Origin: Escherichia phage vB_Eco_OMNI12
Sequence record: OL362041.1
Strand: one strand, 5' to 3'
DNA: 64,000 nt
Shown here: positions 10,428 through 15,052 of the stretch, one piece after another
How the letters are laid out: each line of letters opens with the position of its first letter
Numbering within the stretch: position 1 is the first letter of the stretch
The notes under the pieces: generated by a model
What the model saw: the letters and a program-made list of their open reading frames with translations, nothing else
The model's database searches: none
Told to the model about the DNA's origin: nothing
Program-made: the position numbers and the translations under genes

Positions 10428-11256
10428 TTATATATTTCCAATTATAGCCTTCAACACTTTTACGTTCGCCATTTAAACATTTTAAAATATTTCCTTTGCT
10501 AGAAATATTAAAATATTTTGCTGCGTCTGGTATATAATTAAATGTTTTTAAAAGAACACCATCTTTATATGCGCCAAATAAATTAAGAGTATATTTTTCT
10601 CGAAGACGCTGATGTTTCCTTTTCATAACCTCAGGATTTGCATACGCCAACCTCAATGAATTTCTATGTTTTTCTTTTACTTCAGGTTTTTGCATTGCTA
10701 ACTTAGTTAGCCTGGAAATTTTATTTCTAACTTCGTCAGTTTTCATTGCATTTGACAAATTTAATAAAGTTTTATTTCTAACTTCAGGTTTTTGCATTGC
10801 TAACTTAGTTAGTTCTCTATGTCTTTTTCTAAAATCGTCATCCTTCCATATATTTTTCGATAATTTTGACATAGAGCGGTGAAATAATTCCTTTTCACTG
10901 GAATACAATTTAAAAATTTCATCCAATTCATCCGCATTAAATCTATCGGTATTCGAGTTTATCATTCTATGAAAGGCATAACACATTTTACTATTGCTTG
11001 TTTTAGCTAAATAGTAATGAGCTAACGCATGGTCATAATATGACAAATTAACAATATTCCATTTATCTGTTTTATATTCAGGAAATATAGATTTGGGAAG
11101 CACGTGATGTGCTTCCGTTTTTCCTTTTATTTTAGGATTATTATAATTTTTTGTTATCAAATCAACATATGACAATAGTAAATCATTATTTTCTTCAAAT
11201 ATTAAAGCTAATTTATCATTCACAAAATCGCAAGGATAAAATCTATCATAATTCAT
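10417..11256 (-). CDS. freestanding HNH homing endonuclease (mob-like) between nrdD and nrdG
   Basis: 279 aa; KTEAHHVLPKSIFPEY...NLSYYDHALAH; overlaps both flanking genes; internal tandem repeat. Confidence 0.7.
   Translation of the reverse strand: MNYDRFYPCDFVNDKLALIFEENNDLLLSYVDLITKNYNNPKIKGKTEAHHVLPKSIFPEYKTDKWNIVNLSYYDHALAHYYLAKTSNSKMCYAFHRMINSNTDRFNADELDEIFKLYSSEKELFHRSMSKLSKNIWKDDDFRKRHRELTKLAMQKPEVRNKTLLNLSNAMKTDEVRNKISRLTKLAMQKPEVKEKHRNSLRLAYANPEVMKRKHQRLREKYTLNLFGAYKDGVLLKTFNYIPDAAKYFNISSKGNILKCLNGERKSVEGYNWKYINEL
10681..10812. repeat. tandem duplication inside HNH endonuclease gene
   Basis: Identical 30-mer ttcaggtttttgcattgctaacttagttag at 10681-10710 and 10783-10812 (period 102 bp); encodes repeated LTKLAMQKPEV modules. 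Confidence 0.8.
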
Positions 11257-13070
11257 TGGTGTTTAACCCTATGCATGATTTCTTTATTTTTACCGAGATT
11301 AAATCCGCGTTCGTTCGGATTTCCCAAATAACCACATGTTCTTCTTATTGTATTCATCTTTTTAGGATCAGTTTCTCCACAAATAGAACAAACAAATCCG
11401 TTTTCAGTAGGAGTCATTTCATGGGTACTTCCACACGTAAAACATTTATCTACCGGCATGTTAACACCAAAATAATCTAAATGTTGTGCAGCATAATCCC
11501 ATACGGCCTCAAGACCTTTCAAGTTATTTTTCATATCAGGAAGTTCAACATAAGAAATGTGACCACCTGTCGCAATGAAATGATATGGCGCTTCACGAGA
11601 AATCTTTTCAAACGGAGTAATATTTTCTTCTACTGAGACATGGAAACTGTTAGTGTACCAGCCTTTATCGGTAACATCTTTTACGCTTCCATATTTTTCT
11701 GTATCGAGTTTACAGAAGCGATAACAAAGGTTTTCAGCAGGAGTCGAATATAAACTAAAAGCAAATCCGGTTCTTTCAGTCCACTGTTTAAGATGAGCAT
11801 TCATTTTAGTTAAAATTTCTCGTCCAATATCACGACCGACAAGAATATTCAATTCGTGAATACCAATGTATCCTAAAGACACTGAACTTCTACCGTTTTT
11901 AAATAACTCAATTATATCGTCATCAGGTTTAAGACGAACCCCAAATGCACCTTCTTGGTAAAGAATAGGAGCAACAGTAGCTTTAACTCCTTTTAAGGAA
12001 CTAATTCTACACATCAAAGCTTCAAAACATAAATCCATTCGTTCATTGAACAATTCAACAAATTTCTGTTCATTGAACTGTGTTCCAATATAAGAATCTA
12101 ACGCGATGCGAGGAAGATTCAGTGTTACAACACCAAGATTATTACGTCCATCAAGAATTTCATTACCAGTCGAATCTTTCCATACGCCCAAGAAACTACG
12201 GCAACCCATTGGAGAAACAGGAACAGATGAACCAGTGATAGCTTTATTGTTCTTAGCTGAAATAATATCAGGATACATCCTTTTGCTTGCACACTCTAGA
12301 GCAAGCTGCTTAATATCATAGTTCGGATCGTCTTTATAAAGATTAACACCTTCTTCAACGAACATAACAAGCTTAGGGAAAATAGGAGTTATTCCATCAC
12401 GACCAAGACCTTTAATACGATTTTTCAGAATTGCTTTCTGAATCATTCGTTCAGTCCAGTCAGTTCCTGTACCAAATGTAATTGTTACAAAAGGTGTTTG
12501 TCCGTTTGAACTAAAGAGAGTATTTACTTCATATTCATAAGCTTGGAATGCATCGTATACATCTTTTTCTGTTTTAGATTGAGCATAATTCAACACATCA
12601 GCGATTTGCCATTTTTCTGCATCCTCAATATGTTTTGCATAGGTGCGTTTAACATAAGGAGAAAGTACTTTATCGACATTAGCAAATGTAGTTCCGCCAT
12701 ATTGGTGAGAAGCAACCTGTGCAGTAATTTGTGCCATAATTGCAGTAGCAACGCCAATTGATTTAGGAGTTTCAATCTGTGCATTACCAAGCTTAAATCC
12801 GTTCTCAAGCATTCCTTTTAAATCTACTAAACAGCAATTAGTAAATGGAAGAGCAGGGGAATAATCAATATCATGGAAATGAATAATTCCGCTTTCATGC
12901 GCTTTCATAATAAAAGACGGGACCATATTTTTGGCAATGTGTTTAGACACAATACCAGCCATAAGGTCCCGTTGAGTTGGAAAAACACGAGAATCTTTAT
13001 TAGCATTCTCGTTTAAAAGGTCTTTATTAGTTTTATGAATCAATCCTTCAATTTCTTTTTCAATTGTCAT
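11253..13070 (-). CDS. nrdD: anaerobic ribonucleoside-triphosphate reductase NrdD (class III), intronless
   Basis: 605 aa uninterrupted; C-terminal glycyl-radical motif RRTCGYLG. Confidence 0.9.
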   Translation of the reverse strand: MTIEKEIEGLIHKTNKDLLNENANKDSRVFPTQRDLMAGIVSKHIAKNMVPSFIMKAHESGIIHFHDIDYSPALPFTNCCLVDLKGMLENGFKLGNAQIETPKSIGVATAIMAQITAQVASHQYGGTTFANVDKVLSPYVKRTYAKHIEDAEKWQIADVLNYAQSKTEKDVYDAFQAYEYEVNTLFSSNGQTPFVTITFGTGTDWTERMIQKAILKNRIKGLGRDGITPIFPKLVMFVEEGVNLYKDDPNYDIKQLALECASKRMYPDIISAKNNKAITGSSVPVSPMGCRSFLGVWKDSTGNEILDGRNNLGVVTLNLPRIALDSYIGTQFNEQKFVELFNERMDLCFEALMCRISSLKGVKATVAPILYQEGAFGVRLKPDDDIIELFKNGRSSVSLGYIGIHELNILVGRDIGREILTKMNAHLKQWTERTGFAFSLYSTPAENLCYRFCKLDTEKYGSVKDVTDKGWYTNSFHVSVEENITPFEKISREAPYHFIATGGHISYVELPDMKNNLKGLEAVWDYAAQHLDYFGVNMPVDKCFTCGSTHEMTPTENGFVCSICGETDPKKMNTIRRTCGYLGNPNERGFNLGKNKEIMHRVKHQ

Positions 13071-13540
13071 TTTAAACTCTTTCTAAGCTGCTTCTTAAAT
13101 GAAGCTATTAACTGTGTTTTGGTGTCAGATTCATTATATTCAAATCCTCTTTGAAGCATCTCGGCCATCATTTCCTCTTTTCCTAAACGAGAAAATTCCT
13201 TTGATTTATCTCCAACAAAGTTAGGGTGAATATTATTTTGGGTGTAATCGGATTTTAAATAAGTAAGTAAATTTTCTAACCATTCAAGATAATCAACACC
13301 TTGTCCCTTTAAGCCAGAACGATTAAATTTATGCTTCATTTGACCTTCTGCGGCATTGCAGAGATTACAAAGCAATCCACGTATCTTTCCTGCTTTTGGT
13401 CCATTTAATTCATGGTCATGATCAAGATGATTAGCTTGAACATCAGGATTTAGTTCTCGTTGGCAAATTAAACATTTACCGTTTTGTGCATCATAAAATT
13501 TCTGTTTTTCTTCTTTATATAATTTGCCAGTCAATAACAT
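13067..13540 (-). CDS. 49: endonuclease VII (Holliday junction resolvase) gp49
   Basis: 157 aa; Zn-binding cysteines and HLDHDH motif; length equals T4 endo VII. Confidence 0.85.
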   Translation of the reverse strand: MLLTGKLYKEEKQKFYDAQNGKCLICQRELNPDVQANHLDHDHELNGPKAGKIRGLLCNLCNAAEGQMKHKFNRSGLKGQGVDYLEWLENLLTYLKSDYTQNNIHPNFVGDKSKEFSRLGKEEMMAEMLQRGFEYNESDTKTQLIASFKKQLRKSLK

Positions 13541-13580
13541 AATAAAACCCTTACCTTAAATAGATAAGGGTATTTATTAT

Positions 13581-13866
13581 TTTTAAGTATTGTAAAACAT
13601 TCGATGCAATCGTTTATACTGTCGAATCATCTTTTTAGTAGGACGAGAATAGGTTCCTACGCAAGTTGTCATATGAGGGTCCGTAGAATGTCCTTTAATA
13701 AAAAGTTTCCAAACCTTACCGCCATTTAACTTTTCAGTATAAACCAATTCGGTTTTCATTAAAATGTCCTGTCAGAAAAAGAATTTTGAGTTTTTTCAAG
13801 TATTGTAAAACATTTGATGCAATCGCTTATATTGCCGAATCTTTTGGTCAGAAAAAGAAATTTGAG
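13581..13866. repeat. diverged direct repeats around two adjacent genes
   Basis: About 53-bp repeat at 13581-13634 and 13793-13845 (about 90 percent identity); 20-bp repeat gtcagaaaaagaa(t/a)tttgag at 13771-13790 and 13847-13866. Confidence 0.8.
13583..13759 (-). CDS. small ORF (58 aa) sharing its C-terminal 15 residues with upstream gene
   Basis: Hand-translated: MKTELVYTEKLNGG...IRQYKRLHRMFYNT; not in ORF track (under 60 aa). Confidence 0.4.
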   Translation of the reverse strand: MKTELVYTEKLNGGKVWKLFIKGHSTDPHMTTCVGTYSRPTKKMIRQYKRLHRMFYNT

Positions 13867-14299
13867 TTTCAAGCCATTCAATGTACTCTGCGGCAGCTTG
13901 CATCAGGTTACCTTCATAGCCATCGTTATTTTCTTGCGCAGCTAATTTAGCTAATGCGTATGAAATACGTTCACCTTGAAAAGCGGCTTTAGGCTTCTGA
14001 ACATCTTGGCTAGTTCTCTCTACAACTTCTTCAATTTCACCATTTTCAACGGATTCAGTATTCCACAAACACCAGTATGTAATTGGCTTATCATAGATGT
14101 TAATAATCTTTCCGTCGGAAAGTTCAATTTCAATAATTCCAGTATCAGGTTCTATATCATCTTCACATTCTTTTACAAGTTCACGAACTTTAAAGACAGT
14201 ACCTGCACTAAGTTCCGGCCAGTAATTACATAGCCCTGTATCAACACGATTAATTCTAAACCACTTATCTACTGTAATCATGTCCCATCTCCATATCAA
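13796..14299 (-). CDS. hypothetical protein (position of T4 pin/49.x genes)
   Basis: 167 aa; ends IRQYKRLHQMFYNT. Confidence 0.55.
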   Translation of the reverse strand: MIWRWDMITVDKWFRINRVDTGLCNYWPELSAGTVFKVRELVKECEDDIEPDTGIIEIELSDGKIINIYDKPITYWCLWNTESVENGEIEEVVERTSQDVQKPKAAFQGERISYALAKLAAQENNDGYEGNLMQAAAEYIEWLETQISFSDQKIRQYKRLHQMFYNT

Positions 14300-14403
14300 T
14301 TAAGTCATTTATCGTTGGTTCATTATATACTGTTTCTTCATCAGTGTAAACCGGTTCTTCCGGCTCTGGCTCTACAGTTTCCCATCTAGCCGCCCACCAA
14401 GGT

Positions 14404-14613
14404 TTAACCCCGAAGCTTATTAAGTTCTTCATAATCAATCCAGGATTCTAATCCTGATGGCAAATCAGATTCAATTTCCCAAAGAAGCTCTTCAATTTTC
14501 TGAAGACGATCTAGTTCTTCGGCTGGAATAGTAACCATTGACGGAGCTCGTGATACATTAATATCGTAAATCATATTTACCCCAGTTTGACCATGCAATC
14601 GCCGTATTTCCAC
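14404..14613 (-). CDS. hypothetical protein
   Basis: ORF track 69 aa. Confidence 0.4.
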   Translation of the reverse strand: MEIRRLHGQTGVNMIYDINVSRAPSMVTIPAEELDRLQKIEELLWEIESDLPSGLESWIDYEELNKLRG

Positions 14614-14792
14614 TTAGAAATAGACTTTTCGCCATTAGAATAATAAACTTCGAGTTTAGCACGATTATTTTTAATTTGAATAACCTTGGCTGTCATCAAA
14701 GTTCCATACCCATAATAAACTGCAACTTCATCACCTACATATACCGCGCTTCCGCGATAATCATGAATATAGTCAGTTCCTTCGAGCATCAT
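14577..14792 (-). CDS. hypothetical protein
   Basis: ORF track 71 aa. Confidence 0.45.
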   Translation of the reverse strand: MMLEGTDYIHDYRGSAVYVGDEVAVYYGYGTLMTAKVIQIKNNRAKLEVYYSNGEKSISKWKYGDCMVKLG

Positions 14793-15052
14793 TTAAAATA
14801 TTCTCGCAGTTGGTCAAATCCACCAATATGACTTCCATCAGGAGCAAATACCTGAGGCATTGTTAAGCCGATTTGAGTATCACGACCTAGTTTAGTCAGA
14901 AGCTCAGCGATTTTCTCATCATCAAAAACACCTTTTTCCGGCATAATGTTGATAAATTCAAACGGCTGTTTCTTCACAGTCAAAAGACGTTTTGCATTAT
15001 CACAATACACACATTTGTGGATGTTGCTATCATAACCATATACTTTAAACAT
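14789..15052 (-). CDS. nrdC: thioredoxin/glutaredoxin NrdC
   Basis: 87 aa; CVYC redox motif; length equals T4 thioredoxin. Confidence 0.85.
   Translation of the reverse strand: MFKVYGYDSNIHKCVYCDNAKRLLTVKKQPFEFINIMPEKGVFDDEKIAELLTKLGRDTQIGLTMPQVFAPDGSHIGGFDQLREYFK

Follow-up and report, generated by a model that had tools for sequence, protein, structure and literature searches.

The window, a stretch of 64,000 nucleotides from Escherichia phage vB_Eco_OMNI12 (OL362041.1), is a segment of a Tequatrovirus (T4-like) genome in which nrdD, gene 49, a 58-codon open reading frame (ORF58) and pin lie in that order, all on the minus strand. A 601-bp query spanning the repeat locus described below matched 639 phage records; the top matches, such as Shigella phage SF2-1 and Salmonella phage pSe_SNUABM_01, are 99.5% identical, and the best matches carry the annotations 'inhibitor of host Lon protease', 'hypothetical protein' and 'endonuclease VII'. 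In the T4 reference, pin (161 aa) is followed 41 nt on by gene 49, with no ORF in the gap. The features of the locus are:

11253-13070, minus strand: nrdD
13067-13540, minus strand: gene 49, recombination endonuclease VII, 157 aa (Pfam Endonuclease_7 and Endonuc-dimeris; endonuclease VII in matching phage records)
13541-13582, minus strand: gene-49 leader, with a hairpin (13547-13571); the ORF58 stop is followed in frame by two more stop codons
13583-13759, minus strand: ORF58, 58 aa, ending ..KKMIRQYKRLHRMFYNT and stop; a full-length DUF7279 member
13583-13627, minus strand: Ct', original tail-coding segment of ORF58 (I45-T58 and stop), holding the family-invariant R46, K49, R50, R53 and F55
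13759-13795, minus strand: apparent relic of the former 3' end of pin, (K)TQNSFSDRTF with a TAA overlapping the ORF58 ATG
13767-13770, minus strand: ORF58 Shine-Dalgarno sequence AGGA, inside the relic
13771-13793, minus strand: X', the repeat copy inside the relic
13796-14281, minus strand: pin (PinA, inhibitor of the host Lon protease), 161-aa fused form, ending ..SFSDQKIRQYKRLHQMFYNT and stop
13796-13840, minus strand: Ct, the tail read as captured; final 14 codons and stop of pin161 (IRQYKRLHQMFYNT and stop)
13841-13846, minus strand: fusion-junction codons CAA AAG (Q147 K148); CGA ATG in T4 and T2, CAA ATG in other alleles
13847-13869, minus strand: X, the in-gene copy of the 23-bp repeat, pin codons ..ETQISFSD, 22/23 identical to X'
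between pin and nrdC, minus strand: small ORFs
14789-15052, minus strand: nrdC

The gene-49 leader is conserved in all alleles, directly 3' of the stop codon of either ORF58 or pin161. It forms a terminator-like hairpin (10-pair stem, −18.2 kcal/mol, z −3.4) in which the Shine-Dalgarno region of gene 49 is paired; reportedly this is the hairpin of Barth et al. 1988. Among the frames entering the leader, only that of ORF58 halts ahead of the hairpin, at a TAA or TGA.

The surroundings of the locus differ from T4 in several respects. The window nrdD is one unbroken ORF of 605 aa; in T4 a group I intron bearing a homing endonuclease gene interrupts nrdD, and mobC comes after it. The nrdC-49.1 interval is also unlike its T4 counterpart, a DUF7205 ORF (14577-14792) and a 69-aa ORF (14404-14613, minus strand, between nrdC and pin) replacing 49.2 and 49.3. 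The 69-aa ORF has a sub-threshold match to the family of the T7 gp5.9 RecBCD inhibitor (PF25708; E 6e-4, 20 bits, cut-off 24.5). A strong sigma-70-like site (14322-14350, minus strand; TTTACA, 17-nt spacer, TATAAT; 11/12 matches) falls within the 49.1-like ORF, a short way ahead of where pin starts, and is a candidate early promoter for a pin-ORF58-49 transcript.

A repeated tail shared by Pin and ORF58

Two dispersed two-copy repeats mark the locus. The longer, D1, pairs 13566-13628 with 13779-13841 (83% over 63 nt, spacing 213), and its coding core, 13583-13627 against 13796-13840, is identical at 40 of 45 bases, both copies on the minus strand, one forming the 3' end of ORF58 and the other the 3' end of pin. 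The shorter, D2, is the pair X' and X, spaced 76 nt apart. Both had been recognised in the initial annotation, the second as a short repeat flanking the first copy, and both stand. The top ungapped direct-repeat score in 13300-14100 was 34, as against a mean of 10.2 (sd 1.2, maximum 14) in 100 dinucleotide-preserving shuffles, and the match is therefore due neither to chance nor to low complexity. The comparison with the T4 49-pin interval that it had proposed also reveals differing loci, T4 lacking exactly 213-214 bp present here. Its description of the arrangement as a partial tandem duplication does not hold, as Tandem Repeats Finder detected no true tandem array at the locus. A further candidate repeat, D3, probably reflects chance similarity of AT-rich stretches, and the 76-nt periodicity hinted at by D2 and D3 was rejected as a genuine tandem repeat. 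Neither copy of the repeats holds a promoter-like site or a stable stem-loop, and no promoter-like or terminator-like site was found in 13760-13870.

Counted from the ATG at 14281, the start used in the T4 annotation, the window Pin has 161 aa, and it is 96% identical to T4 Pin; the 167 aa previously ascribed to it derive from a TTG start that is an artefact of mechanical ORF listing. It matches PF10465 with 159.2 bits (cut-off 27) over residues 4-141, and phrog_2167 over residues 1-146. The remaining residues, 147-161, match positions 44-58 of a different family, phrog_3272. The C-terminus typical of the Pin family (..WLE.Q..FS...F, then stop) is absent from the window pin, in which the final two ancestral codons (..AF) are swapped for 15 of DUF7279 origin, the R147 codon surviving only in the T4/T2 junction. 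The 161-aa protein remains a member of the Pin family, though as a chimera. T4 PinA (PF10465, Inhibitor_I24) has the same fused tail with point differences, the junction reading QK-IR here and RM-IQ in T4.

Other members of the Pin family end without the tail. RB69 Pin (137 aa) ends ..EYIEYLERRLS, and homologues at 41-54% identity likewise lack it, those at 41-44% ending ..QLEFSSKSF or ..QLAFSDRGF, like the ..SFSDRAF of the 148-aa form of Pin (pin148). The ancestral ending is thus kept in pin148 and in the distant homologues P0039-P0041. In every pin161 read, R53 of the captured helix has become Q, and H52 is sometimes N (RB7, SG1), changes that fit relaxed or altered constraint on the tail in its new setting. 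An AlphaFold2 (AF2) model of Pin161 merely prolongs the last Pin helix through the tail, at low confidence (pLDDT 65.6 overall and about 50 in the tail). According to literature cited in PMC8835725, T4 PinA binds and inhibits the Lon protease.

ORF58 is a full-length member of DUF7279 (PF23945), with 62.7 bits against a cut-off of 24.5 and coverage of the whole profile (1-53/53), and it matches phrog_3272 over profile positions 1-58/59 (E 3.4e-34). All the family-invariant residues (G13, W17, T41, R46, K49, R50, R53, F55) are present, and an alignment of 17 homologues places the most conserved block of the family, RPTKKMIRQYKRLHRxFY, in the shared tail. It encodes a basic 7-kDa protein (pI 10.2), for which AF2 predicts three beta strands and, at the C-terminus, a basic amphipathic helix (residues 42-56) that corresponds exactly to the segment shared with pin (pLDDT 81.7 in the best model, 52-63 in the other four). 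A Foldseek search of the model against the PDB returned no structural relative (best E 0.27); matches resembling dsRNA-binding domains were weak and were not taken as evidence. With dN/dS of 0.05-0.23 against nine homologues, ORF58 is under purifying selection; this, an AGGA placed 7 nt ahead of its ATG and an unstructured leader are indirect signs that it may be translated into a functional protein.

By tblastn, ORF58 homologues occur in 357 phage records from several genera, and the locus was read in eight of these. WG01 and JS98 (Dhakavirus), RB69 and ST0 (Mosigvirus) and VR7 (Gaprivervirus) each have a DUF7279 gene immediately upstream of gene 49; in E33 (Dhakavirus) and S16 (Gelderlandvirus) it lies at the corresponding place, but the downstream gene is not gene 49. 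With that proviso for S16 and E33, the gene occupies this place in five genera of Tevenvirinae. WG01, E33 and ST0 carry it despite lacking pin. RB69ORF087c, JS98 orf76 and VR7ORF082c share both family and position with ORF58. The family appears tiny and confined to T4-like phages: a profile search of 1.8 billion representative proteins gave only nine matches, the long proteins among them being spurious (repetitive, and matching many unrelated Pfam families), and a word-indexed protein search gave only 10 relatives of ORF58. Nothing relevant to DUF7279 or to ORF087c/ORF078c was found in the literature searched. ORF58 is missing from T4 and about 300 other phages, and is therefore dispensable in at least some settings.

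Among sequenced relatives ORF58 is annotated only as 'hypothetical protein', with one exception: the GenBank record of APTC-EC-2A (L023, 283-459) calls it 'host protease inhibitor'. This label looks like an annotation error that most likely arose from the 14-residue tail shared with Pin.

The profiles, the position of the gene (including in genomes without pin), the conservation of the tail within DUF7279 and the tail-less Pin homologues together indicate that the tail is original to ORF58, and that pin holds the acquired copy. Neither the foreign origin of the PinA C-terminus nor its independent recurrence was found described in the literature searched, which also yielded nothing relevant on PF10465 and pin/gene 49 rearrangements.

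Alleles of the pin-gene 49 interval

The interval was read in 20 genomes and resolved into five arrangements:

C (OE5505, ECML-363, GRNsp7, BMB16, PEC04): pin148 ending ..TCTGAC CGA GCA TTT TAATG, its stop overlapping the ORF58 start; then ORF58 and the gene-49 leader
A (T4, T2, Sf21, RB7): ..TCTGAC CGA / ATG ATT C.G..; C with exactly 137 bp missing
B (the window, SG1, APTC-EC-2A, U115, BCPEco_001): pin161, then the relic AAACTCAAAATTCTTTTTCTGAC AGG ACA TTT TAATG and an intact ORF58
D (Pu-Krd-SF2): pin148; ORF58 lost by a deletion between AAT microhomologies
F (YwIITB1): pin148, with the ORF58 body joined to part of X and to the pin161 junction and tail; ORF58 frameshifted

The tail and leader of A-type alleles are collinear with C, and the tail is one base off that of OE5505 ORF58; the T4 junction is the 'GACCGA' of pin148 joined straight to the 'ATGATT' of ORF58. 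The junction variants, RM-IQ (T4, T2), QM-IR and QK-IR (the window), are of equal length, as would result from one fusion with later substitutions. T4 thus has pin followed directly by gene 49, while the window has a relic of a pin end and an intact DUF7279 gene in between. The C-type allele has the same genes in the same order as the window, but is 76 bp shorter, its ..SFSDRAF ending overlapping the ORF58 start as TAATG and neither tail nor X being duplicated; ORF58 in these phages is 91-97% identical to that of the window. The size gaps between alleles are 214 and 76 bp. In B-type genomes the relic represents the last 11 codons of pin148, still overlapping the ORF58 start; it begins at a run of A's right after the pin stop, and aligns with the ..ETQ(I/N/K)SFSDRAF, stop, TAATG end of the 148-aa pin in OE5505, ECML-363, GRNsp7, BMB16, PEC04 and YwIITB1.

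Systematic samples of the ranked hit lists, which are not a full census, put the alleles at roughly 250 genomes for A, 110-120 for B, 60-65 for C and 60 for D, with B and C together in 177-180 records. In the junction-specific BLAST, coverage failed to separate B from C, as pieces were joined across the repeat, and span and piece count were used instead. The composite allele of the window, present in about 115 sequenced phages, is common among its sequenced relatives.

Two of these genomes have peculiarities of their own. In Ec_YwIITB1 (L019, 416-676) the frameshifted ORF58 runs through the gene-49 hairpin into gene 49, and is annotated as an 86-aa protein. In the B-type genome BCPEco_001 (L025, 281-457), ORF58 ends KRLNQMFYNT, which is the pin-tail allele with the invariant R53 changed to Q; this suggests exchange between the repeat copies, or with an A-type genome.

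Related rearrangements, recovered in a search with Pin, occur outside this group. The RB69-like contig SRR20302901_2936 (L020, 2329-2966) encodes P0038, a Pin of 141 aa ending ..ERRFHRDFYNVY (..EYIEYLERR / FHRDFYNVY), in which RB69 pin is fused to the last nine codons of RB69ORF087c, gene 49 following directly; comparison with RB69 (L008, 1120-1440) places the breakpoints in a deletion between ACGTTT repeats. As in the T4-type allele, a deletion has joined pin in frame to C-terminal codons of the DUF7279 gene that follows it, but the fusion lies in another genus, involves nine codons rather than 15, has breakpoints at ACGTTT and leaves no intact downstream DUF7279 copy. It counts as a second case of tail capture, independent of the first.

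Upstream of pin, this contig also carries another DUF7279 gene, of ST0 type. In phage ST0 itself (L011, 1201-1411), which lacks pin, the DUF7279 gene ends ..HRNFY / NVY and stop, and it looks as if a crossover in ACTTTTATA, between two DUF7279 tails such as those on either side of pin in L020-like genomes, removed pin. P0037 (191 aa; ENA metagenome contigs L021 and L022) is a full-length ST0-type DUF7279 protein fused in frame to the Pin N-terminus. In the RB69-like P0032 and P0035, Pin is extended N-terminally through a frameshifted remnant of that upstream DUF7279 gene. From the P0038, ST0 and P0037 variants, the 49.1-pin-DUF7279-gene 49 interval appears to be a rearrangement hot spot, with the DUF7279 tail as a recurrent breakpoint.

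Proposed origin of the fused and composite alleles

The reading that best accommodates these alleles, to which a probability of about 75% is assigned, is that T4-type pin arose by fusion with the last 15 codons of ORF58, and that the window allele is a composite formed by unequal recombination. ORF58 (DUF7279/phrog_3272; the RB69ORF087c family) is on this reading an old and conserved Tevenvirinae gene. Its ancestral site would be the gap from pin to gene 49, where the TAATG overlap coupled its start to the stop codon of the 148-aa pin. In the lineage to T4, an in-frame deletion of 137 bp would have removed the last eight bases of pin (the last two codons and part of the stop codon) and codons 1-43 of ORF58, thereby letting pin read on into the final 15 ORF58 codons and yielding the 161-aa PinA of T4.

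The window allele would then be secondary, combining the fused pin161, a 35-bp non-coding relic of a pin148 end and an intact ORF58, and it is this composite structure that makes the 45-bp tail and the 23-bp ..TQISFSD segment each occur twice. Most likely a single unequal recombination at the level of microhomology produced it, the partners being a T4-type genome with pin161 and a pin148 genome with ORF58; the left part of A, as far as 'ACTTGAAAA', would thereby have been joined to C from 'AAACTC..'. The same join is found in 5/5 B-type genomes read, and a 7-nt similarity, CTTGAAA, adjoins it. Two points count against it: the join has six A's (five in U115) where a clean crossover within CTTGAAA would give three, and none of the ORF58-bearing pin148 genomes sampled has exactly the ORF58 allele of the window, dS to the sampled C-type alleles being about 0.3.

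The initial annotation had proposed the opposite direction, in which a downstream duplicate of the pin 3' end received an insertion of about 130 bp in front of it and so became a new small gene. The presence of both the tail and its 23-bp flank in two copies, and the lack of the small ORF in T4, would agree with this. It is nevertheless very improbable, as the tail is a DUF7279 feature that the Pin profiles and distant Pin homologues lack, and ORF58 matches DUF7279 and phrog_3272 over its full length, so that the supposed insertion is the ancestral ORF58 body; nor can the gene be new, given homologues of the whole ORF at the same position in five genera, including the pin-less WG01, E33 and ST0. 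Even less credible is that the segment was kept twice as a promoter or RNA signal for gene 49 rather than through its coding history. The tail does always directly precede the gene-49 leader in A- and C-type alleles, and its frame is the only one to terminate ahead of the hairpin, but the pin copy in the window lies 255 bp from gene 49 with the relic, not the leader, coming next; D-type genomes retain gene 49 without almost the whole tail; and the repeat copies are devoid of promoter-like sites. Conservation, moreover, tracks codons: nearly all differences among the window copies and the C-type ORF58 tail are synonymous, the single replacement being R53Q (ORF58 numbering), which is found in the pin copy. 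An origin through a homing endonuclease or mobile cassette was also considered and rejected, since none adjoins the locus in the window and the repeats bear neither promoter nor stem-loop.

A more serious competitor, though still unlikely, reverses the order of the two alleles: a 213-bp unit (X, the old pin end and ORF58) would have been tandemly duplicated in a pin148 genome and then have suffered the 137-bp deletion, with the T4-type allele appearing later. Its second part, equally unlikely, derives that allele from the window type by recombination between the two tails, with loss of 213 bp. The window allele is indeed metastable, in that recombination between its 45-bp copies would yield the A-type with just this loss, and recombination between its 23-bp copies (76 bp lost) the C-type arrangement, and the size differences seen, 214 and 76 bp, agree with both; in the latter product, however, the pin end would read ..DRTF, not ..DRAF. 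Loss between DUF7279 tails is paralleled in ST0, and exchange between copies in BCPEco_001. Against this order stands the fact that it takes three events to reach the T4-type allele where fusion by deletion takes one. In addition, the pin tail is 1 nt away from the ORF58 tail of OE5505 and 5 nt away from that of the window itself; X and X' represent distinct pin alleles (ATT and AAT, respectively); and the B-type junctions are derived variants (QK, QM) that A-type alleles also show, the ancestral CGA ATG being absent from every B-type genome read. A single unequal recombination between A- and C-type genomes is preferred on the first three of these grounds, and because unequal joins of the YwIITB1 type do occur at this locus.

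Expression, function and significance

The proposed join has consequences for the expression of ORF58. In the ancestral arrangement the DUF7279 gene is coupled to the pin stop or starts within 9 nt of it, and the C-type ORF58, coupled through TAATG, has only CGAG upstream; the window ORF58 has its own leader, with a Shine-Dalgarno sequence on the relic. After the join, ORF58 would have lost translational coupling to pin, the relic now bearing a stronger Shine-Dalgarno sequence (AGGA/AAGG). In all five B-type genomes the same six bases read AGGACA or AAGGCA, placing this sequence 7-8 nt before the ATG (7 nt for the AGGA of the window), in a leader that is unstructured (−4 kcal/mol, z +1.1). This suggests selection for independent initiation once coupling was lost. 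Both independent tail captures use the ORF58 frame, two cases being too few to show selection; it is conceivable, if doubtful, that this frame is favoured as the sole one that stops ribosomes before the regulatory hairpin of gene 49.

It is conceivable, if doubtful, that Pin and the DUF7279 protein work together and that the helix of T4 PinA is a functional module rather than a passive remnant, which may serve, for example, in binding Lon or in neutralising Pin. This idea draws on circumstantial evidence, namely on the very acidic body of Pin (pI 4.3) as opposed to the very basic ORF58, on the adjacency and translational coupling of the ancestral genes, and on at least three independent fusions (the T4-type tail, the RB69-like tail and the full-length DUF7279-Pin P0037).

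The type of event, a deletion that fuses genes combined with unequal recombination in a plastic part of a phage genome, is ordinary and does not amount to a new system. Arbiol and colleagues reportedly described, in 2010, modular shuffling in hyperplastic regions of T4-type phages by way of promoter-stem-loop cassettes (PeSLs). Small ORFs are gained and lost between conserved genes at short repeats in both cases, but PeSLs consist of an early promoter and a stem-loop, whereas the repeats here are coding 3' ends and coding flank, without either element.

For annotation, ORF58 ought not to be labelled a 'protease inhibitor'. T4 PinA, the reference phage Lon inhibitor, serves as a biochemical reagent. 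Should its final 15 residues be foreign, structure-function work should compare the 161-aa chimera with the natural 148-aa form, which is present in about 120 sequenced phages. The locus offers a natural allele series, comprising ancestral, fused, composite, deleted and frameshifted forms together with an independent fusion in another genus, and this series shows short homologies reshaping small genes in T4-like phages.
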